From NCBI GenBank assembly GCA_028705775.1, contig JAQWCW010000003.1, forward strand, positions 14,239 through 78,238: DNA of 64,000 nucleotides, given 5' to 3'. Under the pieces are notes generated by a model. It was not told the origin of the DNA. It worked only from the letters and a program-made list of their open reading frames with translations, and did not search any database. Shown piece by piece: positions 7,953-33,525 of this stretch. How positions within the stretch are numbered: the stretch's first letter is position 1; each line of letters starts with the position of its first letter. The translations under genes were made by a program, and so were the position numbers. Source of the DNA: Eubacteriales bacterium (GTDB taxonomy: Bacteria; Bacillota; Clostridia; Christensenellales; Aristaeellaceae).

Positions 7953-7958
7953 CGGAGA

Positions 7959-8846: not shown

Positions 8847-9218
8847 TCATTCCGTCTTGCATAAAAAATACTGATTAATCCCATCCGTAATATCGCGGTA
8901 GCAGCTATTGACCTGCTCGAGCGATTCGTTTATATCCTTGAGTCTGCCGCCGCGGATTATGACGAGCAGCTGCCCGACGGAGTGCATAAGCGGCACAAAA
9001 CCCATATTTCCGGCAACGCCCTTGAGCGCGTGCGCCGCGGTAAAGGCTTCGTCCCACACGCCATGCTCAACGGCTATATTAAGCTCCTCGGTAGTTTTAT
9101 CGTCAAGGAAATCGGTAAGACATTCCGCATACAATTCCTCGTCGCCGCCGAGTCTTTTTATAGCGCCGTCAACATCGGTTTCCCTAAGCGCGAGCGCGTG
9201 CCGCTGACGATTATTCAT
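8847..9218 (-). CDS. stand-alone Hpt (histidine phosphotransfer) domain protein
   Basis: 123 aa from the internal ATG at 9218 (GGAGGGAGG RBS). Phospho-His motif AFTAAHALKGVAGNMG. Close paralogue of the 25002 gene. Confidence 0.85.
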   Translation of the reverse strand: MNNRQRHALALRETDVDGAIKRLGGDEELYAECLTDFLDDKTTEELNIAVEHGVWDEAFTAAHALKGVAGNMGFVPLMHSVGQLLVIIRGGRLKDINESLEQVNSCYRDITDGINQYFLCKTE

Positions 9219-9312
9219 AGGGAACGAACGCCTCCCTCCGCAAAAAATATACGATGGATTGCCAATACTGACGCAAAAATCACAGATGATTCGCGCCGCT
9301 GCAAACGCCGTA

Positions 9313-9681
9313 TCAGGACGGCTGCTCCGCTTTTTCGGCAATTTCGCGAAGCTTTTCAAGCTCCGCCGAAACCCTGACATACTCGCGCTCGGCGTCAGGG
9401 CGGCGTTTTGCCCTCAGCGCCTCGGTAAGCTCGCAGTCCGCCTCATAATACGGCGTAAGCCCGAGATTTCCCGAAAGCCCCTTCAAGGCGTGAGCGCAGA
9501 AGAACGCTTCATCAAGGCTGCCCTTTTCCATAGCCGCTTTGAGCGCCGAATGATTCGGCTCAGAAAGAAACGCGGAAAAGCAAATCACATACAGCTCATT
9601 GTTTCCCATAAACAGGTCTTCAATACCCTCGGCATCCACCCCGTATCCGGTAAGCAGCCCCATCAAAGTATTATACTCCAT
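9313..9681 (-). CDS. stand-alone Hpt domain protein
   Basis: 122 aa. Motif AFFCAHALKGLSGNLG. Starts 24 nt downstream of the giant GGDEF/EAL gene stop. Confidence 0.85.
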   Translation of the reverse strand: MEYNTLMGLLTGYGVDAEGIEDLFMGNNELYVICFSAFLSEPNHSALKAAMEKGSLDEAFFCAHALKGLSGNLGLTPYYEADCELTEALRAKRRPDAEREYVRVSAELEKLREIAEKAEQPS

Positions 9682-9705
9682 TTTATTCTCCGTTTCAGCA
9701 AAAAT

Positions 9706-12700
9706 TCACGAAGGCTTCTTTTCGCCCAAATCCGTAAGCGCGATATAAAGCCTGCCGGTCAAGCCGTAATCGTTCGCCACCTTGTAAACGCCCGCCTTGA
9801 ACCAATGGAAAACGGAGTTCGGCGTGCGGAGGCGCAGTATAAGCTCTGCCGTCTGCCTTTCGCGGCTGGCGGCAAGGTCGTGCGCGGCGCCCTGAAAACG
9901 CTTTACCGTTTCGGTATCCGCAACGGAATCGGCAAGAAGGATATGCCACAGCTGCCGCTTGTCATACTTTCCGGCAAGATAGCGCGAGATGTTTTCATCA
10001 TAAATAAACGCGCCGTTAAGCCAATCGTTTTCGATTACGATTGTATTCTCGCGCTCAAGCACGGTTTTATAGCGGCGGATTTCACCGTTCCTGTACTCAA
10101 GCATACTGTTCTTCGCCCGCAGCCGCTCGTTTTCCGCCTTGGATATGGCTGATTTCACACGAATTTTAAGCACATCGGCGGCATAGGGCTTCGTCACATA
10201 ATCCGAAGCGCCGGCGCGAATAGCGCGAAGGCTTGTTTCACGGTTTCCGTCGCCGCTTACGACAACGACGGGAATCGTGCGCAGTTCAGGCGACTTCTGC
10301 ATTTTTTCCAAAACGGCAAAGCCGTCCATTCCCGGCATCATCAAGTCAAGAAGCACGACGGAAATTGCCGCGCCGTAATGACTGAGCCGAATCAGCGCCG
10401 TCCGCCCGTCCCTCGCCTTTTCAATAATGAATTCGGCGGCGAAGATATTGCTGAGCATCGCGTGGGCTATCTGGCTGTCGTCAACGATGAGCATACGGCG
10501 CTTTCTTTCCCTCTGCGCAGCAGGCACTATGGGCGCGATTTCCGCTGCATCCTCGAAAGCGTCGCGCTCAAGCTTCATCATATCGCCGTGATAGAAGGAG
10601 TAGCTGTCCTTGCCCGCGCCCTTGACGTTGTAAAGCGCGATATCCGCCTTGTTGTAAAGGGAGGCAAAATCCGTCCCGTCCCTCGGCGTTACGGTAATTC
10701 CGATGCTTCCCGTGGTTTCAACCTCCGTGCTGTACGATTTGCGGGTAAGCGCGCAGATTTGCCGCGCCTTTACAGCCGCAATCGAGTCGCCCGGAATATC
10801 CGTCAGGAATACAACGAATTCATCGTCCTGAAGCCTGCCGACCAAATCGTTATGCCTCAGCGCCGTGCGTATGGAGGCGGCAATATCCGCAAGCGCCTGG
10901 TCGCCCGCGCTGTGCCCGAAGGCTTCATTGACCTGCCCGAAGCCGTCAATATCAAGCGCCAGAAGCGCGTGATGAGTTCCGGGTTTTGAGGTTTCGATTA
11001 TATAATTGACCTGCGATTCAAACGCAGAGCGGTTCAGCGCGCCGGTGAGCGAATCAATCTGCGTCCGCTCCTCAACCGAAAGCTCCTCGCGCTTAATGCT
11101 GTCAATGTCCTCAAACAGCAGGTATGCCTCGACCTCCGCCTTGCCGGGCGCGTCCATCATTTCAACGGTCAGCCTGAGCCAGCGCGTTCCGTCGCCGCCG
11201 TCCTTTTTATCGCGGTATTCGATTACAACCGCGCTCCTGCCCTGATAATAGGAAGAAAGAAGCGAATCGGCGCTGATGAAGGCGTTAAAGCGCTCGGCGT
11301 CCTCGCTGAAAACATACATTTCCGAATACATACGCATCCTTGCGCCGAAATCCTTTTCGGATGAGGAAAGCTCCGTCCCGATAAGCGTGCCTTCATCCTC
11401 CCCGAACATTTCGTGGCGCGAAAGATTGCAGCGGTAGAGGGAATACCCGTCGGAATCGCGCCCCTGAAGCGACTGCCTCCACTTGCCGTAAACCGCGTCC
11501 TTTTCCCGCTCGTCGGTCACGTCCGCAAAGGATATAACGGCGGAAACAGGCTCGCCGCTGAATGAAAATATGGTGGAAAAGCTTGCGGACAGCCAGCGCC
11601 AGCCGACCTCCGACATACGCTTGAACGTAACCCTTCCGCTCTTTTCGCCGCGGATTATGCTGTCATAGAAGGCGATATAGTCCTCGGCGGTATCGGGCGA
11701 TACGCTGCCCTGCCTGACCTGACTGAGCGGCAAATCCGTCATGGATTCCGGCGCGTCATATATGCTGCTGGCGTGCGGGGAAATGTGCAGGGTTCTTGAA
11801 GCCACGTCAAAGCGGCAGACAATCGTTTTGCTGTGCGCAATCGCAAGGCGGTTCTCCTCCTCGCTGACCCTCAGCTTGTCAAGCGCATCCTGCCGCGCGG
11901 TTATGTCAAACAGAACGGCGTTGAAAATGGGCTTCCCCCCGTTTTCAATTGAGCGCACAGCCTTTAAGTTAAGCCATTTGTAGCCTCCGTCCTTCATGTG
12001 CGCCTTGAATACGGCGTCAAGCCGCTCCCCGCTTTCCTCAAGGGCGTAGAACTGCTTCTTAACCAGAGCAATATCTTCCTCGTCAATCCCTTCGATAACG
12101 TCCACATCGCCGTGCGCAAGGCATTCCTCGCGCGTAAGCCCGAACAATCTCAGGAAGCCGTCGTTGAAGTATGTCAGGCGAAGCTGCCCGCCAATGCGCT
12201 CAAAGGAAGCGATTCCGCCGGGAATATTATCCGTCAGAAGCTCAAGGCGGGATTTGATTTCCCTTTCCTCCGTTATGTCACGGCCCATTCCGTATATGCC
12301 GATGATATTGCCGTGCGAATCCTTGAGCGGGAATTTGGAGGTGCTGTAATAATGCGCCATCCCGTCCTTTCCGGTAAGGGTATTGACGTAATCCAGCAGC
12401 GACTCGCCGCTTTCAAGCACAAGCCTGTCAAGCCGCTCAAAATCGGCCGCGTTTTCCGCGCCGAGCAGCTCGGAATCCGTTTTTCCGATAACATCGTTTT
12501 CATCGCTGTAGCCGGTAACGGCGCAAACGTCCCTGCTCACGCACAGGTATCTGAGGCGGCTGTCCTTGACGAAGGAAAAGCCCGTCTGGGTGTCCATCAT
12601 CGCGCGCATAACAACGGGCAGCATTTCCCTGATTGACATTGCCTCGTCGGTAATCGGAGTGTAGATTGCGTAAAGCGCATACTTGCGCCCGCCTTTCGGC

Positions 12701-15479
12701 ACAATGCGCCCGTGAACATGGAAGGGTCTGTACGTTTCCTCGTCGTTTCCGTAGAGGAGGCGGAAATCGAGCGAAGCCTCGCGGTTTTCCTTTATGGCAA
12801 GCGCAATTTCATCGCGAATCTGCTCCCTGTCGGCAGGGTGCGCGCTGCCGAGAACGTTCATGCTGTCATACGCAACGGGCGAGCGCCCGACAAGCTCCCA
12901 ATACCGCTTGTTTATATGCACAGCGCGCATTTTCCCGTCATCAATTTCAAAAAGCGCCGCGCCGCCGGGCAGGTTATCCAGCAGCTCCTTCTGCGCGTTC
13001 TTTTCGTTCGTTATGTCCGTGTAGGTCGTAAGCTGAACCTTGCCCTCCTGCTCAAACTCGGTCATCGAAATCTGGCTTCTGAGCCATATAACGCGCCCGT
13101 CGCGCCGCACAGCGCGATATTCAAGCACGGCGGGCTTTCCCGTCGTGCTGACGGCGGTCACAATACTTCTTACATATTCTGCGTCCTCGGCATACAGGGT
13201 CGTGAACGCCATATTGCCGACCTCTTGCCGGTACTGCTCAGGCGAGTAGCCAAGAATGTCGTAATACCTGTTATTCGCAAGCAGGTATTTGACATTTCCA
13301 TCCTTCAGCGAAACGGCGGTTATTCCGCAGTTCACGTTGTCCATAACAGCCTTGAGCTGACCCGCAATCAGTCTCTCCTTGCTTTCCGCCTCGCGCTGCG
13401 CGGTAATGTTCTGGTTTATGCAGTACACAAGATACCTGTCGCCGGTTGAGGCGATAACGCGCATTGTGGAATGCAGATACACTTTTCCGCGGCATCCGGG
13501 CAGGCTGATGAAGGTTATGTCGCGCGTGACCTCCTGCTGCGTTTCAAGGGATTTGTAAAGCGCGGCGAACAGCTCGTGCCTTTCGTTATCGTCCATGTGC
13601 GCAGCCCAGTTAAGCGCAAGCGCGTCGTCAATCGTCATTCCGGCGAGTCCGAGCATTTCCGCGTATTTTTCGCTTGCGCGCAGGATTTCAATTTTGCCGC
13701 TGTGGCACTCGAATATGCAGGCGCTGCCGATATAGCTGTTGAAAATAAGCGAATCAAGGGATTTGGGGTCCCAGAGCGAGTTGTTGTCAAGATGTTCGAT
13801 GGTTTCCATCGTGCGCAGCTTGATTTCCTTTTTGGGCGAGGCAAGCGCCTTTTCAAACTCCGCTTTGGGCATCGGCTTTGCGTAAAGATAGCCCTGAATA
13901 TACTTGCAGCCGATTGAAGCAAGATAGTCCGCCTGCTCCTTTTTCTCAACGCCCTCCGCGATAACGGACATTCCGAGCCATTTTGTCATGCGGACAATGC
14001 TTTCGATTATATTGCCGCCGCGCTCGGTGTCCCCGCTGTCCTCCATGAAGCGCATATCCAGCTTGAGCACCTGCGCCGGAACGCTTTTGAGCGTATTGAG
14101 CGAGGAATAGCCGCTTCCGAAATCGTCAATTTCCATCGTAAAGCCGTAATCGATAAGGCTCTTGACTACGGAAATAATCACGTCCGTATTCTCCGCAAAG
14201 GCGCTCTCCGTTATTTCAAGGCGGAGCATCGACGCGGGCAAATCGTATTTCTTTATAAGCCCGATTATCGTTTCCACCATATCGGGCATGAAAATATCAT
14301 AGCGCGAAATATTGACGGAAACGGGCAGGGGCGAAAGCCCGCGCTCCCGCCAGTCGGCAAGGCTTCTGCACGCTTCCTCCCACACGAATTTGTCCAGCTC
14401 GTATATAAAGCCGTTCTTTTCAAATATCGGCACGAATATGCCCGGCGAAACAAGCCCCTTCACGGGATGCCGCCAGCGCACAAGCGCCTCAGAGCCGACA
14501 AGCGCGCCGGTGGTGTGGTTGTACTGCGGCTGATACCATGCCTCAAACTGGCGCGCTTTCAGCGATTCAGCCATTTCCGTAACGATTTCCTGCTCCATAA
14601 TCAGGCGGCTTCGCATCGCCTCGTCATAATAGGCAATCTTATCCTTGAAGCGCCCCTTGACCGATTCCGCGGCAAGGGAAGCCCTGTCGAGCATTGCGCT
14701 CGGAGAGATAGTCCTGTCGCTCACCACATATCTGCCTATGCTGAACGATATCGGGGCAACAAGCCCGTCAACGCTGCTCGCCTTCCTGCGCATATCGGCA
14801 ATCTTTACGGAGTCCTGCTCGGAGGCAGGGTACAAAACGGCAAAATTGTCCGCCGCAACCCTGCACGTTATTCCGCCCATTTCGCCAAAGCCTACGGAAA
14901 ACACATTGGCGATATATTTCAGAACGTCGTCGCCCTTTTTTGTGCCGTACTGGTCGTTTATAACCCTGAAGCGGTCAATATCAAAGCACGCCATTACATA
15001 GAAGCCGTCGTCCTTTTCGGCAACCATTTCGGAAACCATCTCAAAAAGGCGGCTCTTGTATAAAGCCCCGTGAGCGCGTCGCGCTTCAGGGCGTTTATTG
15101 CGGCGGCGGTTTCCCAAAGGCGAATCGAGCTGCGCACCCGCTGCTTGATTATCGCGGGCTTGTAGGGCTTGCTTATATAGTCGCTCGCGCCAAGCCCGAA
15201 CGCCTTTTCTTCCGATTTAACGTCGGTCTGCCCCGTCATAACGATTATGGGCAGCTGCGAAAGCATACTGTCCCCGCGCAGCTTTACAAGCACATCAAAT
15301 CCGTCCATATCGGGCATCATCAGGTCAAGAAGCACAGCAGACAAGCCGCCCTGAGCAATTATGCTCAACGCGTCAGCCCCGTTCGACGCCTCCGCCGTTT
15401 CATACTCGCCGCCAAGAATGTTTTTGAGCATTTCGCGGTTAACAGCTATGTCGTCTACTATCAATATTCGTCTTTTCAT
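9706..15479 (-). pseudogene. giant REC-GGDEF(degenerate)-EAL-PAS array-GGDEF(degenerate, QDDEF)-REC-PAS-like c-di-GMP signalling protein, frameshifted as sequenced (ORF pieces 14994-15479 and 9706-15117)
   Basis: The REC ORF (MKRRILIVDD..DLMMPDMDG..KP) ends in the GGDEF-domain lead-in LKRDALTGLYTRAAF. The 1803-aa ORF continues in another frame with EMVSEMVAEKDDGFYVMACFDIDRFRVINDQYG. EAL motifs EALVRW, EITES, DDFGSGYSS, EGVE, QGY. Second REC has LLDLMMPGMDG..TKP. Confidence 0.85.
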
Positions 15480-15657
15480 CGTGCGCTCCCTTGCAAAACG
15501 CGCGGTGTGCGCAGGGCACAAACCGGCTATGCTTTATCTGAATGCGATAATTTTAACAATCTTACGGCAGAAATCTGAAAATTCAATAGGCAGGCGCCGC
15601 TTGGCTTGCAGGAACAGTGAGGGCATTCCCGACATATTCTTATCAGATGCTTTTTGT

Positions 15658-15686
15658 ATTATATCATAATTGTTCTCTGCCGACAA
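15658..15686 (-). promoter_or_regulatory. candidate sigma-A promoter for the giant REC-GGDEF-EAL gene
   Basis: On the minus strand: TTGTCG, 17 nt spacer, TATAAT, about 175 nt upstream of the ATG at 15479. Confidence 0.4.
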
Positions 15687-15906
15687 TATCCGCAGTATAT
15701 AATTGCAAAGTTTATTTATTTTCTATCATATTTCCGCAGTTAAGGAGGGAGAAAAAGGGGTGAAAAAAGAGAAGAAGGCGGAATAAAGTTGATTGCAAGG
15801 CGGGTAAAGGCGGGCGAAGAAGGAGCGCAAGCGCGGTCAGTACAAACGGAGAGGGAACGATTCAGGTAAGCGGAGCAGGAACGGCGAAGGAGGTTGGCGC
15901 GAGCAT

Positions 15907-16112
15907 AAACCGTCTGCACAAGCAGACGGTTTACTAAAAGAAGGCTCGTATGTAGTAAAGGGAGCTGGCGCGTAGCGCCTGAGGGATTGTCGTAAACGCT
16001 TGATATATAAGGGGTTGCGCCTACTATTCAACAGCATTCCTTGCGAGAATCCAACCGACAATCCTTCCGTCACGGCTACGCCGTGCCACCTGTTCTTGCA
16101 CAAGGGAGGCTT
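15907..16112 (+). repeat. interspersed composite repeat, copy b
   Basis: Hairpin AAACCGTCTGCACAAGCAGACGGTTT at 15907-15932. Unit A (inverted) at 15957-15992. Unit B at 16055-16112. Shared tail ATCCGGTATCGTTGCCGTACTG. Confidence 0.8.
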
Positions 16113-16488
16113 AATCCGGTATCGTTGCCGTACTGCGAAACAGTCTCTTGTTGGTTCGCGTTCCCCGTTCCATTCTCTCCACACAAAAACATATATGAAA
16201 ATATAATAATTCATCAATCATCTTATAAAAGCATTGATTTTGCGGTTCCTCTGGTGTAAAATTGCAATAGTCAATTAATCCACAAATTAACCGCGCAGGG
16301 CATTATCGGTAAAAACCATTATGTCAATGAGCGCGCGGCAAAGCCAAAGACGGTTTTGAGCAATAACAGGGCAGCGCAGGCAGCGCTTTTGCGCATGATT
16401 GGTATTTCCCGCGCAATCATTATCACGCGCAATCGGGATTCCGCCGTATTTTTTGGCGTTTCTCCGTCCAAACGGCGTTTCGCCATCA

Positions 16489-16620
16489 TTCGGCGCTCCG
16501 CCGCAAGCCCTTTTACCGCAGCCTCGTTCGGCGCTCCGCCGCAAGCCCTTTTACCGCAGCCTCGTTCGGCGCTCCGCCGCAAGCCCTTTTACCGCAGCCC
16601 CATTCGGCGCTCCGCCGTCC
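16489..16620. repeat. 38-bp tandem repeat, about 3.4 copies (TTCGGCGCTCCGCCGCAAGCCCTTTTACCGCAGCCTCG)
   Basis: Read directly. The 38-nt period is not a multiple of 3, so each copy falls in a different reading frame. Flanked by more degenerate related sequence over about 16400-16760. Confidence 0.85.
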
Positions 16621-16823
16621 GGACGGCATTCCGTCACCACACCTTTAACGCCGCCCCGCCCGCGCGCTGCCGCTTAATCGGCGTCTCACGCGCAACAGTT
16701 ATCCCCCATCCGGCGTTTCGTCCCCGTCCGGCGCTCTGCCGCGCCGCCCAATATTTATTACTCGGCATATCAGAAAAAGTTCGCGGGCAAGCATATGCCG
16801 GCGCGAAAAGCGAGGAACAGAAA

Positions 16824-18152
16824 GTGTCAGCGATTCCAGCAAGCAAAGAAATTTATCTGAACGAAACGGAAGTTAAGCCCAATCTGTACGCCTCGCGCGT
16901 GCTTGCGGGCATTGTCGGCGTCATCTGCATAGTTTTCGTGCTCAACATCACCGGAATATTCACCCTAGATTACATACTGGTATTCCTTTCCCTGATTGTC
17001 TCCGCCTCAATCTTCATAGCAATGCGCCTGCTGGTTCGCAATCCCGTAATGGTAGTAAAGCCCGTCACCAAATATATTATGCTCGCAATGGAGCTGCTGC
17101 TCGTTCTGACGGTTACGGTTCTGCTCAACGTTCATGCGGTTCTGGGCTTTGTGCTTCCCGTTCTGCTGGCTACGCAGTACCGCTCCTATAAATTTTCGCG
17201 CTGCGCGATTCTAGGCTCATGCCTTTGCTGCCTTGCAGCGCCGATATTTTCATACCTTCTTGAAACGTGGGATTTAATCTTCATGACGGGCTATATCGAA
17301 ACCTTCTGCCGCGTGTCGGTAAGCCCCGTGCCTGCCGCAGAAGGCAGCTTCCTCATTGCCGTATGGCAGATAACCCTTTACTGGTCAATGCCGCAGGCGC
17401 TGACGCTGCTCGCCTTTGGAATAATACTGCAATCCGTTACCAAAAACGGAATCGACAGCGTTCGGAATCATATGCGCGTAGCGGATTTGAGCGAGGATTT
17501 GAACAGGCAGCTGGGCAGCATAGTTTCGATGCAGGAAAAGGTGCTTTACTCGATGTCCGACATAATCGAAAACCGCGACATTGAAACGGGCAGCCATGTA
17601 AGACGCACAAGCGAGATTGTGCGCCTGCTCACAAACGCAATGCTGCGCGACGAGCAAAGCGGCGTTACGGAGGACTTTTGCAACTCCGTCGTCAAATGCG
17701 CGCCGATGCACGATTTGGGCAAGATAGCGATTCCCGACACGATTCTGAGAAAGCCCGGAAAGCTTACGCGCGAGGAATATGAAATCGTCAAGAAGCACCC
17801 TGAGAACAGCGCGAAGATAATCGAGCAGGCGCTTACGGGAATCGAGGACGAGCGCCTGATGAAGATTGCAAAGAACATAGCGCTTTACCATCACGAGCGG
17901 ATGGACGGCAAGGGCTACCCCTGCGGGCTGTGCGGCAAGGATATACCGCTTGAGGCGCGGATTATGGCAATCGCGGACGTATACGACGCGCTTGTCAGCG
18001 AGCGCTGTTACAAAGCCCCGATGGACGCGCGCGAGGCGTACATAACGATTGAGCAATCAATGGGAACGCAGTTCGACATCTCGCTCAACAAGTATTTCAT
18101 CGAGTGCAGGGAACAGATAGAAAGCTATTATTTTGCCAAAAAGTCCGCATGA
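16824..18152 (+). CDS. membrane-anchored HD-GYP domain c-di-GMP phosphodiesterase
   Basis: C-terminal HD-GYP motifs HDLGKIAIPD and HHERMDGKGYP. Multi-TM N-terminal region. Start placed at the in-frame GTG at 16824 (GAGGAA RBS), because the ORF call from 16356 runs through the non-coding tandem repeat. The start is uncertain. Confidence 0.8.
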   Translation: MSAIPASKEIYLNETEVKPNLYASRVLAGIVGVICIVFVLNITGIFTLDYILVFLSLIVSASIFIAMRLLVRNPVMVVKPVTKYIMLAMELLLVLTVTVLLNVHAVLGFVLPVLLATQYRSYKFSRCAILGSCLCCLAAPIFSYLLETWDLIFMTGYIETFCRVSVSPVPAAEGSFLIAVWQITLYWSMPQALTLLAFGIILQSVTKNGIDSVRNHMRVADLSEDLNRQLGSIVSMQEKVLYSMSDIIENRDIETGSHVRRTSEIVRLLTNAMLRDEQSGVTEDFCNSVVKCAPMHDLGKIAIPDTILRKPGKLTREEYEIVKKHPENSAKIIEQALTGIEDERLMKIAKNIALYHHERMDGKGYPCGLCGKDIPLEARIMAIADVYDALVSERCYKAPMDAREAYITIEQSMGTQFDISLNKYFIECREQIESYYFAKKSA

Positions 18153-23708: not shown

Positions 23709-24698
23709 ATGAAACCGGTAAAACTGCTGACGATTGCCGCGCTGGTTCTTGCGCTTGCTTTGCCGTGCGCCGCGCTTGCCTCAAACGCAACTGACACCTC
23801 CGCGTGGACGACGGAAACCTCCGATACCGCCTCGCACGCCTATCCGATGGGCAAGGGCGTAATCGAGCTTTTCGATTCATACACCTTTGAAACCGGCGTA
23901 ACGCGCGTAGGCGCGATGGACTATTATCTTTACGACCCGATTAAGCACGGAGCGCCCGCAGACAAGGAGTACCCGCTGATAATGATGCTTCACGGCTCAG
24001 GCAACGGCGGCGATAACGACAAGCTCTGCGGCGCTCTGACGGACTGGATGATTTACGCCTCAAGCGAGTACCAGAGCGCGCTTTCGGGCGCTTACATCCT
24101 GTTCCCCAAGGCGAACGAATATGATACAAGGCGCACAAAAACCGTATGCGATACGGAATATCTTTACAAGGGAACGGGCGACTGGATGACGAGCGCAAAG
24201 ATGACCTCCGTTTACTCGCCTGCCCTTTACGCGCTTGTCCAAAAGCTTAAAGCGGAGTATCCGATTTCAAGCCTTTCGGTTATCGGCAGCTCGGCAGGCG
24301 GCTATATGGCATGGCGCTTTGCAATCGACTATCCCGATTTGTGCGACAAAATCATTCCCGTAGCGCCCGCCTATGCCCCGAGCGAAAAGGAGCTGAAGCT
24401 TCTTGAGGATAACGGCGTCGGGATATGGGTTGTCCACGGCGAAAAGGACGCAAACTGCCCGCTCAAGCTGTTTACGGGCAAAATTGCCGACAGGCTTGAG
24501 CAAATGGAAAACGCGCGCGTGTCAATTCTGGACACGGTGCGCTTCGGGGACAGGCGCATAGTCAGAATAATCGTTGACGGAATGGATATGGGGCAGCATC
24601 TTGCGCAGTTTGCCGTCGGGCAGAATATGATTTATGCAGACGGCTTGCCCTATGACGAGCGCTATCCGGACGGAATTATCGCGTGGCTCGTCGAATAA
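23709..24698 (+). CDS. secreted alpha/beta-hydrolase (esterase/peptidase-like)
   Basis: Signal peptide MKPVKLLTIAALVLALALPCAALA. LHGSGNGG oxyanion-type block. Nucleophile elbow GSSAGG. Confidence 0.7.
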   Translation: MKPVKLLTIAALVLALALPCAALASNATDTSAWTTETSDTASHAYPMGKGVIELFDSYTFETGVTRVGAMDYYLYDPIKHGAPADKEYPLIMMLHGSGNGGDNDKLCGALTDWMIYASSEYQSALSGAYILFPKANEYDTRRTKTVCDTEYLYKGTGDWMTSAKMTSVYSPALYALVQKLKAEYPISSLSVIGSSAGGYMAWRFAIDYPDLCDKIIPVAPAYAPSEKELKLLEDNGVGIWVVHGEKDANCPLKLFTGKIADRLEQMENARVSILDTVRFGDRRIVRIIVDGMDMGQHLAQFAVGQNMIYADGLPYDERYPDGIIAWLVE

Positions 24699-24785
24699 AG
24701 GTGCTTCTGCGCCTGCCCACGCCGCGTTTTGCGCCGCGCAAGCCGGCGCTGTAACGGCTTTTCAGCAAATTTTTGCAGAAATTGA

Positions 24786-25001: not shown

Positions 25002-25382
25002 ATGACGCATGAGCAGCGTAAGGCGCTGGTTCGGATAGACACAGATATATCGGGAGTTGAGCGGCGCTTTTGCGGCGATGACGCGCTGTACATATCGTGC
25101 CTTAGCTTATTCCTCAGCGATTCAACGATGGAGCAGCTTACGAGGGCGCTCAGCCTTCGGCTGTGGGACGACGCGTTTACCGCCGCGCACGCGCTTAAAG
25201 GGCTTGCGGGCAATATGGGCTTCGTTCCGCTGATGCACTCCACGGGGCAGCTGGTCGCCCTGATTCGCGGAGGCAGAACCCTTGAAATCAGCGACGCGCT
25301 TCTGCGCGTCAGAATGGACTACGCGGAAATAACCGATGTAATAAATCAAAACTTCATATGCGCGATTACCGAAGGAGAGTAG
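25002..25382 (+). CDS. stand-alone Hpt domain protein
   Basis: 126 aa. Motif AFTAAHALKGLAGNMG. Paralogue of the 8847-9218 gene. TAG stop. Confidence 0.85.
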   Translation: MTHEQRKALVRIDTDISGVERRFCGDDALYISCLSLFLSDSTMEQLTRALSLRLWDDAFTAAHALKGLAGNMGFVPLMHSTGQLVALIRGGRTLEISDALLRVRMDYAEITDVINQNFICAITEGE

Positions 25383-25387
25383 CGAAA

Positions 25388-28300
25388 ATGAAAAACGATG
25401 GACTAAAGCACGGATATAAATACATTGTCGGAATAGGCGCGTCTGCGGGCGGGCTTGAGGCGCTGCAAAAGCTGCTGAGCGCGCTGCCCTCCAACACGGG
25501 CTTCCCCTTCATCGTGATTCAGCACCTCTCTCCCGATTATAAAAGCCTGCTCGGTGAAATACTGGGCAAGTACACGGATATGCCCGTTATTCAGGCGGAG
25601 GATAACATGACGGTGCTGCCCAACCGCGTGCATATCATTCAGCCGGGAAAGAATATGCGGATAGAAAGCGGAAGGCTCAAGCTGGTTGACCAGATTCCGA
25701 AGGAGCTTAACCTGCCTATCGACATTTTCTTCCGCTCCCTTGCCGAGGACGCGGGCACAAACGCAATCGCAATAGTCCTTTCCGGCACAGGCTCTGACGG
25801 AACGAACGGAATCAAGTCAATCAAGGAAAACGAGGGAATGGTTCTCGTTCAGGATTTGGAAACGGCAAAGTTCGACGGAATGCCGCGCTCCGCTATGCGG
25901 ACGGGGCTTGTTGACGCGCAGCTTTCCCCTGAGGAAATAGCGATAGAGCTTGAGCATATTTCCGGACTTCCGCTTGCGGCGGAGCGCGGCAAAACGCTTC
26001 AGGAGATTGACGCGGAGCTGATGCGAAAGGTTTACGCCGTTCTCAAAAAGGTCAGCAACGTTAATTTCACGCATTATAAGCAGACGACAATCCTGCGCCG
26101 GATGGAGCGCAGAATGATGATAACGCATAAGGAGCAGCTCTCCGACTATGTGGACTACCTGCTCGAATCGCCCGAGGAGGTTCGGGTGCTTTCCAAGGAG
26201 GTTCTGATTGGCGTTACGAGCTTCTTCCGTGACCCTGATTATTTCCAGCTTTTGAAGGACAAGGCGATAACAGATATAGTCAGCCGCTCGCAGGGCGAGG
26301 AGCCGATTCGCGTATGGGTCGCCGGCTGCTCGACGGGCGAGGAGGCGTACTCAATCGCCATCCTTTTCAGCGAGGTAATGGATAGCATGAAGCTCAAGCG
26401 CGAGCTTAAAATCTTCGCTACCGACCTTGACACGGAGGCGATAACGACCGCGAGCAAGGGGCTTTACGGCGACAATATCGTGGACGCGGTTTCCCCCTCG
26501 CGCCTCAGCAAGTATTTCACGCGCAAGAACAACGCATATCTTGTGAACCGCGAAATACGCAAAATGATAGTTTTTTCTCCACACAACGTGTTTCAGGACC
26601 CGCCGTTTGGCAGGCTTGACATGATTTCGTGCCGCAATATGCTCATATATTTCCAGCCCGTCCTGCAAAACGACCTTTTCGCAATTTTCCATCAGGCGCT
26701 CAAGGACGGCGGATACCTGTTCCTAGGCAAGTCCGAGGCAATCGGCTCATACACGGACGCCTTCCCCATCGTCGACGCGGCGACAAAGATTTTCGGGCAT
26801 TGCGCCGACGCGAAAATTGCCGGCTCAAAGAAGGTTCCGTACCTGCAGACGACCTATATGGACGAGGAGCTTTCGGGCGATTCGGGGCTTTCAGCCTTCT
26901 CGCTTCAAATGCGCAGCGAGCGCTCCGCCGAGTCGTCGGCAGTATCAATCGATAACTCAATCCTTGAGCAGTTCCTGCCCGCAACGGTTGTAATAAACGA
27001 GAAAAATGAGCTTATACACACCTACGGCGACACCTCGAACGTAATGCATTTCTCCCTCGGAAGATATTCGAGCAATCTTTTCGATTTGATAACGGAGGCG
27101 CTGAAAATACCCGTTTCCACGCTTCTTAAGGAATCGCGCGACAAGAAGCGAAAGGCGCAGTACAGGGACATCCGCTTTACGGGCGAAAGGGAGAACTCCG
27201 TAATCGACCTTACCGTTGCCCCCGCGAGCCATAATAACAGCGTATCCGAAAACCTGTACGCAATCGTGTTTGCGCAGACGCGGCAGGATAAAGCCGATAC
27301 GGACTCCGTTGTGTACGACGTCGACAGGGTTTCCTCGCAGCGCATAACGGATTTGGAGCAGGAGCTGGTTGAAAAGCAGACGAAGCTTGACCAGAGCGTA
27401 TCCGAGCAGGAAACGGTTAACGAGGAATTGCAGGCGGCGAACGAGGAGCTGCTTACCGCAAACGAGGAGCTGCAAAGCTCCAATGAGGAGCTGCAATCCG
27501 TAAACGAGGAGCTGTACACGGTCAACTCCGAATATCAGCAGAAGCTGACGGAGCTTTCCGATTTGAACGACGATATCGCAAACTTCCTTTCCTCAACGCT
27601 CACGGGCATAATTTTCGTAGACAACAAGCTCAACATCCGCCGCTATACGGATTATGTAACCTCCGAATTCTCCGTTATGGACCATGATATAGGCCGCTCG
27701 CTCGCCTTTATTTCCTATCATTTCCCTGCGGTTGATATAACGGAAATATGCACGAACGTGCTTAAAACGCTGATTCCCAACGAGCGGGAAATAACGACGA
27801 ACAGCGGCAAATCCTTCTTCATGCGCGTCGCGCCGTACCGCTCGACGGAAAACAAAATTCTCGGCTGCGTAATAACCCTTATGGATATTACGAAGCAGAA
27901 GCAGAATCAGGAAAGCCTGCTCAGCACGGAAAAGCGCCTTTCAATGGCGCAGCAGGCAAGCGACGCAAAGAGCGATTACCTCTCGCGCATCGCCCACGAA
28001 ATCCACTCGCCGATGACCTCGCTTATGGGGCTTGTCAGGAACGCCCGCGCGCTCGCAACCGACGACGCGCAGAAGGCGGAAATCGACAAGATTGCCCAGA
28101 CAATCGACTATATGACCTCAATCGTCACGGATATTTCCGAAGCGTCCGTATGCGAGCGTCTTTCCAAGGAGCAGATTACCGAGCCGTTCGTTTTGCGCGA
28201 TATGCTGGAAAGCGTGAGCGAGGCGGTGCGCCCCAAGCTTGACGAGGCAGGCGTTTCCTATAAGCTGCTGCTTGACGAGGGCTTCAACCCCTCCTATATC

Positions 28301-29086
28301 GGCAGCAGGGCGAAGCTGCAGCAGATTCTGCTCGGCTTCCTCAGCTCCTCCCTCCGCCATACCGAAAAGGGCGACTCGATTACGCTTCGCGTGTTTGAGG
28401 AACTGGGGCGGAGCGAAAAGGCAAAGCTGTGCCTTATCGTTTCCGACACGGGCAGCTATATAAAAAAGGAAAACCTCGACAAGCTTTTCAAGCCGTTTTC
28501 CGATATCGCGGAGGAAAACAGAACGCCGAGCAACGCATGGCTCGGGCTTTCCACCGCGTATAACGAAATCATATCACTGGGCGGCAGCGTAAGCGCAAAA
28601 AGCGAGGAAGGCAAGGGCAGCACCTTTACAATCACCGTGCTTCTGGACAGGCAGACGGAGGCGGACAAGGAGCAGAGGGAGCAGGCGTTCAGCAATAATC
28701 TTTCGGGCAAAAACGTGCTGATTGCCGAGGACAACGCGCTGAACCGCACAATCTTGGGCGCGCTTATCAAAAACGAGGGAATGACCTACGCGGAGGCGCA
28801 GGACGGAGAGGAAGCCGTGAAGAAATTCACGGACGAGCCTGCCGGAACCTTCGACTGCATACTGATGGACATGAGAATGCCGAAGCTTGACGGAATCCGC
28901 GCAACGGCGAAGATTCGCGCAAGCGGCAAGCCGGACGCGAAAACCGTACCGATTATCGGCGTTTCCGCAAACGGCTTTGTGGACGATATAAGAAAAGCGC
29001 AGGACGCGGGAGTCAACGAATACACAACGAAACCGATTTACCGCGAAAATCTGCTTACCGCAATAAGGAAGCTGATTAAGCGCTGA
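25388..29086 (+). CDS. CheB methylesterase-CheR methyltransferase-coiled coil-PAS-HisKA-HATPase-REC hybrid sensor kinase
   Basis: CheB block GASAGGLEALQ..VIQHL..LSGTGSDG. CheR block FFRDPDYF..VWVAGCSTGEEAYS..FATDLD. Heptad segment EELQAANEELLTANEELQSSNEELQSVNEEL. H-box DYLSRIAHEIHSPM. G-box GKGSTFTI. C-terminal REC (LMDMRMPKLDG..TKP). ATG at 25388 follows a GAAGGAGAG RBS. Confidence 0.9.
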   Translation: MKNDGLKHGYKYIVGIGASAGGLEALQKLLSALPSNTGFPFIVIQHLSPDYKSLLGEILGKYTDMPVIQAEDNMTVLPNRVHIIQPGKNMRIESGRLKLVDQIPKELNLPIDIFFRSLAEDAGTNAIAIVLSGTGSDGTNGIKSIKENEGMVLVQDLETAKFDGMPRSAMRTGLVDAQLSPEEIAIELEHISGLPLAAERGKTLQEIDAELMRKVYAVLKKVSNVNFTHYKQTTILRRMERRMMITHKEQLSDYVDYLLESPEEVRVLSKEVLIGVTSFFRDPDYFQLLKDKAITDIVSRSQGEEPIRVWVAGCSTGEEAYSIAILFSEVMDSMKLKRELKIFATDLDTEAITTASKGLYGDNIVDAVSPSRLSKYFTRKNNAYLVNREIRKMIVFSPHNVFQDPPFGRLDMISCRNMLIYFQPVLQNDLFAIFHQALKDGGYLFLGKSEAIGSYTDAFPIVDAATKIFGHCADAKIAGSKKVPYLQTTYMDEELSGDSGLSAFSLQMRSERSAESSAVSIDNSILEQFLPATVVINEKNELIHTYGDTSNVMHFSLGRYSSNLFDLITEALKIPVSTLLKESRDKKRKAQYRDIRFTGERENSVIDLTVAPASHNNSVSENLYAIVFAQTRQDKADTDSVVYDVDRVSSQRITDLEQELVEKQTKLDQSVSEQETVNEELQAANEELLTANEELQSSNEELQSVNEELYTVNSEYQQKLTELSDLNDDIANFLSSTLTGIIFVDNKLNIRRYTDYVTSEFSVMDHDIGRSLAFISYHFPAVDITEICTNVLKTLIPNEREITTNSGKSFFMRVAPYRSTENKILGCVITLMDITKQKQNQESLLSTEKRLSMAQQASDAKSDYLSRIAHEIHSPMTSLMGLVRNARALATDDAQKAEIDKIAQTIDYMTSIVTDISEASVCERLSKEQITEPFVLRDMLESVSEAVRPKLDEAGVSYKLLLDEGFNPSYIGSRAKLQQILLGFLSSSLRHTEKGDSITLRVFEELGRSEKAKLCLIVSDTGSYIKKENLDKLFKPFSDIAEENRTPSNAWLGLSTAYNEIISLGGSVSAKSEEGKGSTFTITVLLDRQTEADKEQREQAFSNNLSGKNVLIAEDNALNRTILGALIKNEGMTYAEAQDGEEAVKKFTDEPAGTFDCILMDMRMPKLDGIRATAKIRASGKPDAKTVPIIGVSANGFVDDIRKAQDAGVNEYTTKPIYRENLLTAIRKLIKR

Positions 29087-29101
29087 TTGGGAGGACGCAG
29101 T

Positions 29102-29461
29102 ATGGACGCAGTAATGCTTGCGGAATACGGAATAGACTACGAGAAGGCGCTTGGCAGCTGCATGGGCAACGAAGCGTTCCTGCGCAAGATTCTGACCATG
29201 TATCTTGACGACGTAAGCTTCGGAACGGCTGAAAGCGCGTTTAAGAAGCGCGACTGCGCCGCGCTGTTTTTAGCCGTGCATGAGCTGAAGGGCGTTGCGG
29301 GCAACGCGGGCTTTGTGGGACTTTACGCCGCGGTTCTGCCGCTTGTTGAGCTTACGCGCTCGGGAAAATGCGACTGGAACAAGGCGACAGAGCTGTTTGA
29401 AAATCTCAAGAAGGCGTACGAGCGCACGATAGCGGGAATACTGCGCTCAATTCCCGAATAA
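29102..29461 (+). CDS. stand-alone Hpt domain protein
   Basis: 119 aa from the ATG at 29102 (GGGAGGA RBS). Motif LFLAVHELKGVAGNAG. Starts 16 nt after the kinase stop. Confidence 0.8.
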   Translation: MDAVMLAEYGIDYEKALGSCMGNEAFLRKILTMYLDDVSFGTAESAFKKRDCAALFLAVHELKGVAGNAGFVGLYAAVLPLVELTRSGKCDWNKATELFENLKKAYERTIAGILRSIPE

Positions 29462-29549
29462 CAATATCAGCAAATAAACAGGCAGCTATAAAGCAGAAAA
29501 ACTGAATATCTCTTTTACCGCCCGACCGACAAGGCACACAGGAGGAAAA

Positions 29550-30929
29550 ATGAATATCAAAAAATTGTCCCTGCTCGCGCTTATCGCGGCGCTTATTCTG
29601 GCAATCTCAGGCTGCACGGGAAACGTACCGAAAGCTCCGGAAGTAACCGCCGAGCCGATTACGATTACCGTTGCGGGCGGCTGGGAGGATTGCCGCGCAA
29701 TCGACGAGGTGGCGCGCAAGTTTACCGAAAAGTATCCGAACTGCACGGTGCGCTATGAGTACCTTCAGGATTACAACAACTCGCTTGTAAAGCGCATGAC
29801 GGGCGACAGCCCTGTCGACGTGTTCTTTACGTCGAATATTCAGGCGGATTCGCCGCTTCTTCCGTATGCGCTCAACCTCAACGGGCGGGAGGATTTGAAT
29901 CTTACAGACGTGTTTTACGGGCTGACGCAGAATTTCACCTTCCGCGAGAACGGCGAAATATCCGATAGGCTTTACGCAGTGCCGGTCGGCGCGGATATGC
30001 GCGGGCTTTTCGTCAATAAAACGCTGCTTGCCTCGCTCGGGCTTACCGTTCCTGCCAATAAGGCGTCGCTGCTTAACGCCTGCAAGGTTCTCAAGGAAAA
30101 CGGCTATATGCCGCTGCAGGGCAATCCCAATGATTTTTAGCAGACGCTGCTTTATCCGTGGGTCTGCAATATCATCGTCAACTCGCCAAAGGAGGCGGGC
30201 GTGCGCGAGGCGGTCGAAAAGCGCTCAGCCGGCATAAGCGAGCTTTTCCGCGAGCCGTTTGAGCTTATGTACACGATTGTCGAAAACGATTATTACAACT
30301 ATAAGCACGAGCAGGACGTAAACGGGCTGTTCGTTGACAGCGCCGATATTGATTACGCCCGCTATTTCCTCAACATAAAGAAAACGGACAGCGGCTATGA
30401 AAAGGCGGACGATGTCGGCGTTATCGCCTTCATGCCCTCCCCGATGTCGCGCACAAGCGTAATGGAAAAAGCGCGCGAGGACTACCACAGCAATATTGAA
30501 TATGTGTTCATTGCCGCGCCTGTCAGCGACGAGGGCGGCTTTGCATACCTTTCCCCCGGTCACGGGCTTGCAATCAACAAGGAGTCCCCGAACGTCGATT
30601 GGGGCGTCCGCTTCATGGATTTCCTCTTTCAGCCGGAAAACAGCGAGCTTTTCGCAAGCGAGTTCCACACAATCCCGAACACGAAGAACGCGGTTTCCTA
30701 CATCCGCAAGCTTTTCGACGTTCCGGACAACCGCATTTCCGAGCTGGGTCAGGTTACGTTCGGCTATGATTTCTACAAGCCAATCACCACAACCCTGCGC
30801 GATATTTCAAAGGGCAACAACCCGAAATATATGCAGACAGCCGAGGACGGCTCCGTATCCCTCTACCCGCTTGACTACTACATGAATCAGCTAGAGGAAA
30901 GTTTGAAATCAGATGAGCAACAGCAGTAA
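29550..30929 (+). pseudogene. ABC-type extracellular solute-binding lipoprotein (family 1) interrupted by a single in-frame TAG at 30138-30140
   Basis: Lipobox LILAISGC. ORFs 29550-30140 and 30201-30929 share one frame. The 20 codons between them are open (QTLLYPWVCNIIVNSPKEAG). No other disruption. Confidence 0.8.
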
Positions 30930-33525
30930 TAAACCCGAAATAAAAGAACGGCTGCATAAGCGCGGGCAGGGGCTTATTGTAATAATCCTCAACCTGGTTC
31001 TGCTTTCGTGCGCGATTCTCTTTTACACAATGTACACGAGCGCGTACGAAAAGCGGCTGAACGATGAGAATTTAGGCAATATAGCCAACATGAACCGCTC
31101 CGCTGCAATGAACGCTACGGCGCTGATTGAGAGCATGAACATAAAGCTCGACGATTTGGCGCAGTACGTCAAAAAGCACGCCCTCGACCTTGAGGGCGCG
31201 CTTGAAATGATTGACGACGCGAACTCAAGCAGCGAAAGGTATTTCGAGCTAATCGGGTAGGACGCGAAGGGCTATCTTGCCGAGCGCGGCGAGGACGGGC
31301 TTTTCCCGCAGCTTGATTATTCCCACACTTCCTATGCGCCGCTGCAAAGGATTTTCAAGGAAGAATATCCGGACGGAATCGGCAAAATCCGCTTTGCGCC
31401 GGAATACACTGACGGCGGAAGAAGCGCCGAAAAATTCTTCGCAATATACAGGCGCATAATAATCAAGGACGGCGATAAGGACGTTCCCTACACTATTATG
31501 CTCGCAACGAGAGCAAAAAGCGTGCTAGAGGTGCTTAACGCGCAGGACGATTATCTGGGTCAGTCCACAGTGCTTATCGACGACGCGGGCAACTATATCG
31601 TCAGCAACATCGACTTCAAGTCGAGCAACTTCTTCCAGTACCTGTATGTGTACAACAACCTGTCGATGGACAAGCGCAACGCGATAATAAACGAAGTGAA
31701 GGAAAAAGGCGCGGGCGAATTGTACTACAAGAATTCAGGCAACAAGATAGAGGACTGCGTTTACCGCTACGAAAGGATTGAGAACAGCGGCTGGTACTGC
31801 ATAACCGCCATTCCGCTTTCCTCCTTCCACTCCCCCGTGTTCAACATGAGCTATGCAATTTATGCCGTAGCCGCGCTGCTTCTGCTCCTGCTGACGGATT
31901 TGCTGTGGCTGCAGGGAATGAACCGCCGCCTCCGCGTGAGTATGCTCAGGGAAAAGGAAGCGAGCGCCGCAAAAGGCAGCTTCATGTCCCGTATGTCGCA
32001 TGAAATACGCACTCCGCTAAACGCGGTAATAGGCTACAACACGATTGCGCGCAACGAAATGAGCGACGCAAACGACGACGCGTCGCGCAGGCAGGCGGAG
32101 ATGAAGGTGCTGGACTGCCTTACAAAGAGCGATATCGCGTCAAGGCATCTGCTGACGATAATCAACGACGTTCTGGATATGTCCGCAATCGAAAGCGGTA
32201 AGATTAAGGTTTCCGTTGAGCGCTTCGATTTCAAGGGGCTGATAAGCTCAATAACCACCATTTTCTATTCGCAGGCGCGCGCAAAGGGCGTCGAGCTTGA
32301 GGTTGTGTTTGACGCGCTTACCGAGGAATGGTATATGGGCGACCAGCTCAGGGTAAACCAAGTGCTGACAAACCTGCTTTCAAACGCAATCAAGTTCACT
32401 CCGGAGGGCGGAAAAGTAAGGCTCACAATCAGCCTTGCGGAAAACTCCGAAAAGAAGGCGCGCATTCACTTTGCCGTGTCCGATACGGGAATCGGAATGA
32501 CAAAGGAATACCTCAGCCACATCTTCGTGCCGTTTGAGCAGGCGGATTCCTCAATCTCGCGGCGCTTCGGCGGAACGGGGCTTGGGCTTTCCATAACAAA
32601 GAACCTGATTGACCTTATGCACGGAACAATCGAAGTTTCGAGCGAGCCGAGCAAGGGCTCACAGTTTGACGTTGAGCTGACCTTCGGGCGCACGGCGCAG
32701 CCCTCGCAGGAGGAAGCCTACGATTTCAGCTATATCAAGGCGCTCGTTGTGGACGACGACGCAAGCACCCGCGATTACATCAAGCTGCTGTTCGGGCGCT
32801 GCGGCGCAAGATGCTCCGCCGTCGCTTCGGGCGACGCGGCTGTGGACGCTTTCAAGGCGGCGCAGGCGATGGGCGAAAGCTATACAATGTGCCTTGTGGA
32901 CTGGCGTATGCCGCAAATGGACGGAATCGACACAATCAAGCGTCTGCGCGAGGTTTCGGAAAAGGATATACCAATCGTGGTGCTTACGGCATACGATTAC
33001 TCGGAGCTTGCGGAAAAAGCGGAGGACGTTGGCATAAAGAAGTTCATCGCAAAGCCGCTTTTCCAGTCAACGCTCTTTGACCTGCTCGCCAATCTTTCGG
33101 GCGGAAAAGCTCACCTTAACCTGCAAAAGAACAAGGTGTACGATTTCAAGGGTCGGCGCGTGCTGCTTGCCGAGGACAACGCAATGAACATGGAAATAGC
33201 CAAAAAAATAATGGAGTCCGCGGGTCTTAACGTTGACGAGGCATGGAACGGGCGCGAGGCTGTTGAAAAGTTCAAGGCGGCGCAGGCGGGCTATTATATG
33301 GCAATACTGATGGACGTGCATATGCCGGAAATGAACGGGCATGACGCGGCGCGGACAATCCGCGCAATGGAGCATCCCGAAGCAAAAACGATTCCCATAA
33401 TCGCAATGACAGCGGACGCGTTTGCCGAAAACGTTGCCGAGGCAAAGGCGGCGGGAATGAACGAGCATATCGCAAAGCCAATCGACATTCCGACGCTGTT
33501 TTCCACTTTGAGCAGATATGCGTGA
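30913..33525 (+). pseudogene. TM/Cache-like sensor hybrid histidine kinase with two C-terminal REC domains, interrupted by a single in-frame TAG at 31258-31260
   Basis: ORFs 30913-31260 and 31498-33525 share one frame, and 31261-31497 is open (DAKGYLAERGEDGLF...). H-box SHEIRTPLNAVIGY. N/G boxes LSNAIKFT and GGTGLGLSI. REC1 has VDWRMPQMDG..AKP. REC2 has LMDVHMPEMNG..AKP. The start overlaps the SBP gene by 17 nt. Confidence 0.8.

Follow-up and report, generated by a model that had tools for sequence, protein, structure and literature searches.

A putative multistep phosphorelay with four stand-alone Hpt genes and cyclic di-GMP enzymes in a clostridial genome, linked in relatives and partly decayed in the window strain

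A cluster of signalling genes located between 8.8 and 33.5 kb in a 64-kb stretch of contig JAQWCW010000003.1 of an uncultured Eubacteriales bacterium from wastewater (the whole stretch is hereafter called the window) was analysed by open reading frame (ORF) listing and Pfam scans. The cluster encodes four small Hpt proteins (Hpt1 to Hpt4), two hybrid kinases (kinases 1 and 2), two giant proteins with receiver (REC), GGDEF and EAL domains (giants 1 and 2) and an HD-GYP phosphodiesterase (Table 1). We consider it probable that the locus, in its ancestral state, represents a lineage-specific, multi-kinase multistep phosphorelay with turnover of cyclic di-GMP (c-di-GMP) as its output. The original prediction had described the parts of a complete His-Asp-His-Asp relay. 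The domain inventory confirmed that these parts are present, but the relay is not complete in the window genome, where giant 1, kinase 2 and an adjoining solute-binding protein (SBP) gene are interrupted, i.e. it is partly decayed in this strain.

The genes lie on both strands. On the minus strand, giant 1 is followed by Hpt2 and then by Hpt1. On the plus strand, the first half of the cluster runs from the HD-GYP gene through giant 2 to a PEBP-family gene and an alpha/beta-hydrolase gene, and the second half consists of Hpt3, kinase 1, Hpt4, the SBP gene and kinase 2. The expectation that the cluster lacks a DNA-binding response regulator was borne out by Pfam across its whole length, and no such regulator was detected in the rest of the window either.

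The prediction that four small ORFs encode monodomain Hpt proteins with an H-x-L-K-G motif also held: the motif H-[A/E]-L-K-G is present at residues 60–64 in all four, and Pfam calls Hpt, with three of the proteins scoring above the Hpt (PF01627) cut-off of 24.6 bits. Hpt4, which falls just short of it, is an Hpt despite this score. It was assigned as such because i) its positional orthologues all match Pfam Hpt (11 of 11, best E-value 3e-8), ii) a profile of these orthologues searched against PDB matched only Hpt and CheA-P1 structures, and iii) its all-helical AlphaFold2 model (pLDDT, i.e. predicted local distance difference test, 96.5) has Hpt domains as its top PDB fold matches (3myf, TM-score 0.79; BarA 3iqt, 0.74; HptB 7c1i, 0.70). 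A word-indexed protein search with Hpt4 returned 2 proteins only, a number reflecting the sensitivity limit of that search rather than rarity. The phospho-accepting His is kept in 45 of the 47 Hpt ORFs found in relatives, the two without it being fragments. As NCBI already names Hpt1, Hpt3 and Hpt4 'Hpt domain-containing protein', the gene-level calls are not new; no description of the whole cluster was found in the literature, and a literature search for Hpt relays in Clostridia turned up nothing relevant.

In related loci these genes are not scattered; their linkage is strongly conserved. Scanning with kinase 1, with one genome per species, gave 45 loci (numbered L001 onward) with kinases 55–80% identical, nearly all in metagenome-assembled genomes (MAGs) of uncultured Oscillospiraceae, Lachnospiraceae and Eubacteriales, plus Yanshouia hominis. 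Hpt ORFs around these kinases were found with a hidden Markov model (HMM) built from the four window Hpts. Among the 33 loci whose flank is long enough, at least 26 have a small Hpt ORF immediately before the CheB-CheR kinase; on the other side, 13 of 40 have one immediately after it. Altogether, 44 Hpt ORFs were informative; 37 of them come directly before a hybrid kinase, namely a CheB-CheR kinase in 30 cases, a different hybrid kinase in 6 and a pair of SBP and kinase 2 in 1. The Hpts could be divided into three classes, orthologous by position: class A (HptA, represented by Hpt1 and Hpt3), just upstream of the kinase; class B (HptB, represented by Hpt2), one gene further upstream and usually right after a giant with REC, degenerate GGDEF and EAL domains; and class C (HptC, represented by Hpt4, with HELKG), just downstream of the kinase. 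The archetypal order of giant, HptB, HptA, CheB-CheR kinase, HptC and hybrid kinase is found in L001, L086 and L087. L004 repeats the right half of the window cluster (HptA, kinase, HptC, SBP, kinase 2), and in L019 the series HptA, kinase and HptC is followed by an intact orthologue of giant 1. The outcome was the same when the synteny search started independently from class-A Hpts instead of the kinase. Of 34 well-flanked loci, 18 have a c-di-GMP gene within 10 kb. The smallest unit that is conserved is the Hpt-kinase pair, and c-di-GMP giants are often but not always its neighbours.

The stop codon of Hpt3 is 5 nt before the kinase 1 start, and Hpt4 starts 15 nt past the kinase 1 stop. For Hpt3, a search yielded 177 clusters of relatives; its counterparts in related loci invariably sit immediately in front of a CheB-CheR kinase. 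Hpt1 shares 55% identity with Hpt3 and 64–66% with the kinase-upstream Hpts of L001, L019 and L022. Hpt2, starting 24 nt past the giant 1 stop, has as its orthologues the second-upstream Hpts L001_up2, L006_up1 and L040_up2 (45–48% identity).

Both kinases had been predicted to be hybrid kinases with a C-terminal REC domain. Kinase 1 is as described: its ORF is intact, its H-box reads AHEIHSP and its REC domain has the residues E, D, D, S and K. It has no transmembrane (TM) segment and is cytoplasmic, and the Ser-His-Asp triad of its CheB domain aligns with S164/H190/D286 of 1A2O. Kinase 2, on the other hand, has two REC domains and is not a single ORF, with an in-frame TAG at 31258–31260 (codon 116, within the periplasmic domain) where orthologues have Ser; its orthologue in L004 is intact. 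The HisKA and HATPase domains and the receivers (DDDTK and EDDTK) of kinase 2 are otherwise intact. The SBP gene, which overlaps the kinase 2 start by 17 nt, has an in-frame TAG as well (30138–30140, S197stop), with TCG (Ser) at this codon in two sister assemblies and an intact call of 459 aa in L080 and L081.

For the two giants, the predicted domain content, with REC beside or between GGDEF and EAL domains, was confirmed, but giant 1 is not a single ORF and the REC domain of giant 2 is a pseudo-receiver. Giant 1 is split by loss of one nt into a 161-aa REC ORF (14994–15479) and a 1777-aa ORF (9706–15039). Adding one T restores the sequence RAAFFEMV, which aligns with REAFFEKV of the intact 1818-aa orthologue, and the frame-corrected protein aligns with that orthologue (L019:14122–19578) over its full length. 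Both receivers of giant 1 are intact (DDD[T/S]K), as are its EAL motifs, whereas both of its GGDEF sites are degenerate. The receiver of giant 2 lacks the phospho-acceptor Asp, while the other five receivers of the cluster are all intact, and it is predicted not to be phosphorylatable in the usual manner. The GGDEF at residue 688 of giant 2 is the sole intact site among the four in both giants. The EAL signature (EALxR, N, ExTE, DDFGxG, KxD, EGVE and QG) is complete in both, and catalytic competence is predicted for them. In the c-di-GMP proteins of close relatives (L001–L047), the 20 receivers have DDD[T/S]K or EDD[T/S]K, except for the two of L027 (DDNAR and DDDSH). The HD-GYP protein, which had been listed among the parts of the relay, retains its HD and GYP motifs but has no receiver, its N-terminus being a multi-TM domain; it does not have the RpfG-type architecture and is, for want of a receiver, unlikely to be wired by phosphotransfer.

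From the domains, residues, gene order and conservation of that order, all of which were observed, we infer each phosphotransfer step and the choice of partners as follows. The conserved core cassette consists of HptA, the cytoplasmic hybrid kinase with the order CheB-CheR-PAS-HisKA-HATPase-REC, and HptC; in relatives it adjoins, on one side, a giant with the order REC, degenerate GGDEF, EAL, PAS, degenerate GGDEF and REC, followed by HptB, and, on the other, a membrane hybrid kinase with two receivers, often plus an SBP. Each hybrid kinase would autophosphorylate on His and transfer the phosphoryl group to the Asp of its own receiver, from which it would pass to the His of a dedicated Hpt. 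A hybrid kinase needs an Hpt to hand its phosphate on, and this need, together with the tight pairing of Hpt and kinase genes, argues for dedicated Hpts. The phosphorylated Hpts would then donate to the giant 1 type protein at its two intact receivers; having these and no kinase of its own, it is the best candidate for terminal acceptor. Since its GGDEF sites are degenerate and the EAL domain is its sole intact catalytic domain, the phospho-regulated output would mainly be c-di-GMP hydrolysis. Giant 2, with GGDEF and EAL domains, and the HD-GYP protein would be sensor-driven c-di-GMP enzymes of the locus, outside the phosphotransfer chain. An output of c-di-GMP turnover rather than transcription, as originally proposed, is plausible. 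The terminal acceptor need not be the neighbouring giant. In the window strain, the relay retains as possible working parts, with intact frames and residues, only Hpt3, kinase 1, Hpt4, the 161-aa REC fragment of giant 1 and the 1777-aa ORF that makes up the rest of it.

Several observations weigh against such a relay. The proposed acceptors are damaged in the window genome, giant 1 being split and giant 2 having a pseudo-receiver. Hpt1 has no adjoining kinase gene and is the sole class-A Hpt seen without one after it; tblastn with kinase 1 and all ORFs of the relatives against positions 7900–8900 gave nothing meaningful as a decayed kinase gene. The HptA-kinase pair stands alone amid housekeeping genes in two relatives (L088 and L089), and a receiver-linked c-di-GMP gene is present within 10 kb in only 9 of the 34 well-flanked loci, so that the final acceptor may be encoded elsewhere. 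Clustering of signalling genes can also mirror duplication hot spots.

These points bear on the alternative that the genes are co-located without forming one pathway, which we regard as rather unlikely. Each Hpt would in that case serve only the adjacent hybrid kinase, the acceptors (for instance CheY-like, Spo0A-type or DNA-binding) would be encoded elsewhere, and the giants would be independent sensors that have gathered by chance in one signalling-gene hot spot. The stand-alone pairs and the low number of loci with a receiver-linked c-di-GMP gene agree with such an arrangement, and so do the own membrane sensor domains of giant 2 and the HD-GYP protein, neither of which has a working receiver. 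AraC-type response regulators are encoded a few kb off in L011, L035 and L089, but they are paired with their own His_kinase and SBP genes. Moreover, the gene for a giant with REC, degenerate GGDEF and EAL domains directly precedes the Hpt genes not only in the window but also in L001, L002, L006, L039, L086 and L087, and in L019 it comes straight after HptC. None of these giants has a kinase of its own, and one or two of their receivers are fully intact. We retain a relay ending in c-di-GMP turnover as the preferred reading.

The disruptions were examined further in sister strains. Exact-sequence look-up of Hpt3 gave six independent assemblies at least 99.9% identical to the window (one NCBI MAG named Eubacteriales bacterium, the others being from ENA and Logan). 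PRJEB12083, which the records of two of the six name as their project, is cited in a metagenome study of hospital and farm effluents (PMC5437528). All four sister assemblies that reach the giant 1 site carry the frameshift (split calls in L080, L081, L083 and L084), and all three that reach the kinase 2 site have its TAG, while the SBP TAG is found only in the window and one other assembly. In addition, codon 149 of giant 2 is changed from TGG to TGA (W149stop, window position 18790) in 4 assemblies (L081 and L083–85), the frame being open in the window strain. Different near-identical strains thus carry different nonsense alleles in the locus, with two further lesions fixed, and the six assemblies differ by 13 coding polymorphisms, i.e. 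2 nonsense, 7 non-synonymous and 4 synonymous. Because they recur in independent assemblies from other samples, the disruptions of giant 1, kinase 2 and the SBP gene are genuine and not assembly errors. The locus is thus gathering loss-of-function alleles in nature, for which relaxed selection and selection for loss would account alike, and the pathway appears to be undergoing loss in wastewater populations.

It may be asked whether the whole locus is a non-functional relic in the window strain, its intact genes being merely not yet degraded. Three disrupted genes and a pseudo-receiver, a further giant 2 nonsense allele segregating in sister strains and the share of nonsense and non-synonymous changes among the polymorphisms would fit a relic. 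However, kinase 1, the four Hpts, the HD-GYP protein and the giant 2 of the window keep open frames and catalytic residues, and the halves of giant 1 are two long ORFs, the second opening with an ATG 4 nt past the slip, which could still be expressed. The housekeeping flanks show no comparable damage in an ORF survey, which was not a systematic test. A relic is on these grounds distinctly improbable, and a partly decayed relay is the better description.

That the interruptions are an artefact, TAG recoding (pyrrolysine or other) or programmed frameshifting, as might be thought from two in-frame TAGs in neighbouring genes and a frameshift in a homopolymer, is largely refuted and deserves almost no credence: sequencing error was rejected as the frameshift and the kinase 2 TAG are common to independent assemblies from different samples; recoding was rejected since TAG is the true stop of three intact genes (giant 2, Hpt3 and YpsA), ARAGORN found no tRNA gene in the window, hence no suppressor or Pyl tRNA there, and both in-frame TAGs stand where a sister strain has TCG or orthologues have Ser, all of which makes them plain nonsense mutations; and frameshifting was rejected on sequence, a slippery site having the form X-XXY-YYZ and transcriptional slippage a minimum run length, with which the T5 run preceded by C does not comply.

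Kinase 1 has the domain order CheB_methylest, CheR_N/CheR, coil and PAS_10, and its coil contains an array of five heptads, N-E-E-L-x-[S/A/T]-[V/T/S/A]. This stretch is kept letter for letter in nearly all of 46 homologous ORFs from relatives' loci and can still be made out in a Pirellulaceae protein with an overall identity of only 33%. When the CheR-coil-PAS_10 segment was searched exhaustively, 11,325 representative proteins were obtained at E<=1e-30. Among the best 150 representatives (35–80% identity), 148 have at least three heptads, mostly five, and the N, E, E and L are 96–100% invariant over their 730 heptads. The classical chemoreceptor methylation consensus is Glu-Glu-x-x-Ala-Ser/Thr, and the NEEL heptads resemble such methylation sites. 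We tentatively suggest, as a possibility and no more firmly, that members of the CheB-CheR-PAS_10 family are receptor-less kinases, whose own CheR and CheB domains would methylate and demethylate their own heptads, thereby tuning the autokinase, and that in these Clostridia the signal would be passed via dedicated Hpts to c-di-GMP phosphodiesterases. If true, this would be a Wsp-like logic without chemoreceptor, CheW or CheA, and the heptads provide a concrete hypothesis on the target of the fused methylation enzymes. No papers on self-methylating CheB-CheR kinases, CheB-CheR fusion kinases or the NEELQS motif were found in the searchable literature, which is incomplete, and the arrangement may be known already.

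Relays of this kind are known from other organisms. In Silicibacter sp. TrichCH4B, transfer from SiliHK via SiliHpt to SiliDGC was shown biochemically, with phosphorylation altering the c-di-GMP output; as in the cluster, a hybrid kinase, a stand-alone Hpt and a receiver fused to a c-di-GMP enzyme are involved (PMC4436077). That system, from an alphaproteobacterium, has one kinase, one Hpt and one REC-GGDEF protein, with H-NOX/nitric oxide input and genes unclustered with the acceptor (PMC4436077). The cluster described here instead combines a kinase fused to CheB and CheR with Hpts of three classes and with giant putative acceptors that have multiple PAS domains and EAL as their intact catalytic domain, and it belongs to Clostridia. 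In Vibrio, the hybrid kinases LuxPQ, LuxN and CqsS feed the monodomain Hpt LuxU, LuxQ working with periplasmic LuxP; LuxU is a single shared Hpt, and its acceptor LuxO is a sigma-54 transcription activator. The overlapping SBP and kinase 2 genes, which appear to be translationally coupled, have a LuxP/LuxQ-like layout, and the LuxQ NCBIfam model is among the best matches of kinase 2 (325 bits), but far under its 1200-bit cut-off. Unlike the LuxU relay, the locus encodes several Hpts, and no DNA-binding acceptor is among its products. In P. aeruginosa, HptB collects input from PA1611, ErcS', SagS and RetS and acts on HsbR/HsbD, controlling a diguanylate cyclase and biofilm behaviour, with output via an anti-anti-sigma partner switch and with scattered genes. 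The HptB network resembles the cluster in its stand-alone Hpt, as is also seen in the match of the Hpt4 model to HptB, and in its c-di-GMP end, and differs in its partner-switch output, scattered genes and proteobacterial host.

The Wsp system consists of separate proteins (the MCP, i.e. methyl-accepting chemotaxis protein, WspA; the CheR WspC; the CheB WspF; the CheA-REC WspE; and the REC-GGDEF WspR) with direct His-Asp transfer and no Hpt protein. It is similar to the cluster in coupling CheR and CheB to a kinase with a receiver-linked c-di-GMP enzyme as output. In the cluster, however, CheB and CheR are both fused to a HisKA-type kinase, and these two domains are all that the window holds of a Che- or Wsp-like set, Pfam having detected no MCP, CheW or CheA among the genes of the window. 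In RpfC-RpfG (Xanthomonas), RocS1-RocR and VieS-VieA, hybrid or unorthodox kinases with a fused Hpt control REC-HD-GYP or REC-EAL phosphodiesterases, whereas the Hpts of the cluster are free-standing and its HD-GYP protein, lacking a receiver, is not RpfG-like. The relay kind is therefore already known, and the cluster differs by its three position-specific Hpt classes, CheB-CheR-HisKA kinase, degenerate-GGDEF giants and clostridial host.

Multistep relays with free-standing Hpts are known in detail almost exclusively from Proteobacteria and eukaryotes. According to a survey of sequenced genomes, fewer than 1% of the two-component proteins of Firmicutes are hybrid kinases, and the share of Hpt proteins in prokaryotes generally is typically below 1% (PMC4558063). 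The conserved cassette is compact and testable in Clostridia and could show how several inputs merge into c-di-GMP control, and it would link a c-di-GMP output to the large uncharacterised CheB-CheR-PAS_10 kinase family (>11,000 representative clusters). The strain-level nonsense and frameshift alleles suggest that the wastewater populations sampled can dispense with the pathway or select against it.

Table 1. Features of the signalling cluster, with positions in the window (domains and families from Pfam; aa, amino acids; nt, nucleotides)
Feature	Position	Strand	Description
Hpt1	8847-9218	-	class A, 123 aa, HALKG with His63, Pfam Hpt 33.8 bits
Hpt2	9313-9681	-	class B, 122 aa, HALKG, Pfam Hpt 30.6 bits
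Giant 1	9706-15479	-	REC, GGDEF (AADNF), EAL, several PAS, GGDEF (QDDEF), REC, PAS-like tail
Giant 1 frameshift site	15043-15047	-	T5 run, ancestrally T6
HD-GYP phosphodiesterase	16824-18152	+	442 aa, membrane protein, about 5 N-terminal TM helices, HD at residue 296, GYP at residue 364, Pfam HD_5 115 bits
Giant 2	18344-23194	+	TM, extracellular domain of about 265 aa, TM, PAS, GGDEF, pseudo-receiver, PAS-like, GGDEF (SNDVF), EAL, PAS
Giant 2 pseudo-receiver	20711-21082	+	equivalents of CheY D12/D13/D57/T87/K109 are E, K, S, S, K
PEBP-family gene	23212-23685	+	17 nt behind giant 2
Alpha/beta-hydrolase gene	23709-24698	+	23 nt behind PEBP-family gene
Hpt3	25002-25382	+	class A, 126 aa, HALKG, Pfam Hpt 34.7 bits
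Kinase 1	25388-29086	+	CheB, CheR, coiled coil, PAS_10, HisKA, HATPase, REC; 1232 aa
Heptad array	27419-27523	+	five N-E-E-L-x-[S/A/T]-[V/T/S/A], kinase 1 aa 678-712; candidate methyl-accepting sites
Hpt4	29102-29461	+	class C, 119 aa, HELKG, Pfam Hpt 23.7 bits (just under cut-off of 24.6)
Solute-binding protein	29550-30929	+	lipoprotein-type SBP_bac_1
Kinase 2	30913-33525	+	TM, periplasmic domain, TM, HisKA, HATPase, REC, REC

The PEBP-family and hydrolase genes may be co-transcribed with giant 2. Scanning for consensus promoters and terminators gave little: between Hpt3 and the kinase 2 stop all terminator-like matches are weak, and the strongest such hairpin of the region, at 33566–33595, comes right after kinase 2. 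Rfam at gathering threshold detected no riboswitch, including the c-di-GMP riboswitch, or other RNA family in the whole window, and at E<=1 there was no RNA family match in 15400–16950. The window flanks are ordinary chromosome, with genes assigned by Pfam to PFOR, CDP-alcohol transferase, a LacI-type repressor, YpsA, AsnB, RsmF and CdaA. The cluster has a LacI-type gene beside it in the window and also in L022, L086 and L087, and a LacI/periplasmic-binding-protein-like sensor fused to GGDEF is encoded beside the cassette in three relatives (L010:9175-11106, L016:13780-15732 and L023:2741-4666).

Several repeats were also noted. A hairpin-rich repeat of about 250 bp, without Rfam match, is present at 8405–8626 (minus strand), 15904–16162 (plus) and 44662–44919 (plus), with a stub at 51249–51311 (plus); the copies are 79–84% identical to each other. 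Compensatory changes are seen in its first hairpin, which lies between an A-tract and a T-tract and so has a terminator-like look. All three full copies adjoin signalling genes. Those at 8.4 and 15.9 kb are mutually inverted and enclose the block of Hpt1, Hpt2 and giant 1, which suggests a rearrangement, and the third is located just past the 3' end of an extra stand-alone GGDEF protein gene (562 aa, 44944–46632, minus strand) outside the cluster. Between the LacI-type gene and Hpt1 there is an 18-bp tandem repeat with about 9 imperfect copies (7968–8165), and the long gap that precedes the HD-GYP gene contains a 38-bp tandem repeat (3.4 copies, 97% identity, 16489–16617); the latter holds the sole indel and 4 of the single-nucleotide polymorphisms separating sister strains. 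Outside the cluster, a 504-aa ORF without Pfam match (38215–39729, minus strand), containing 36-bp tandem repeats at 38495–38700 and 38853–38965, adjoins the CdaA/YbbR cyclic di-AMP genes at 39738–42007.

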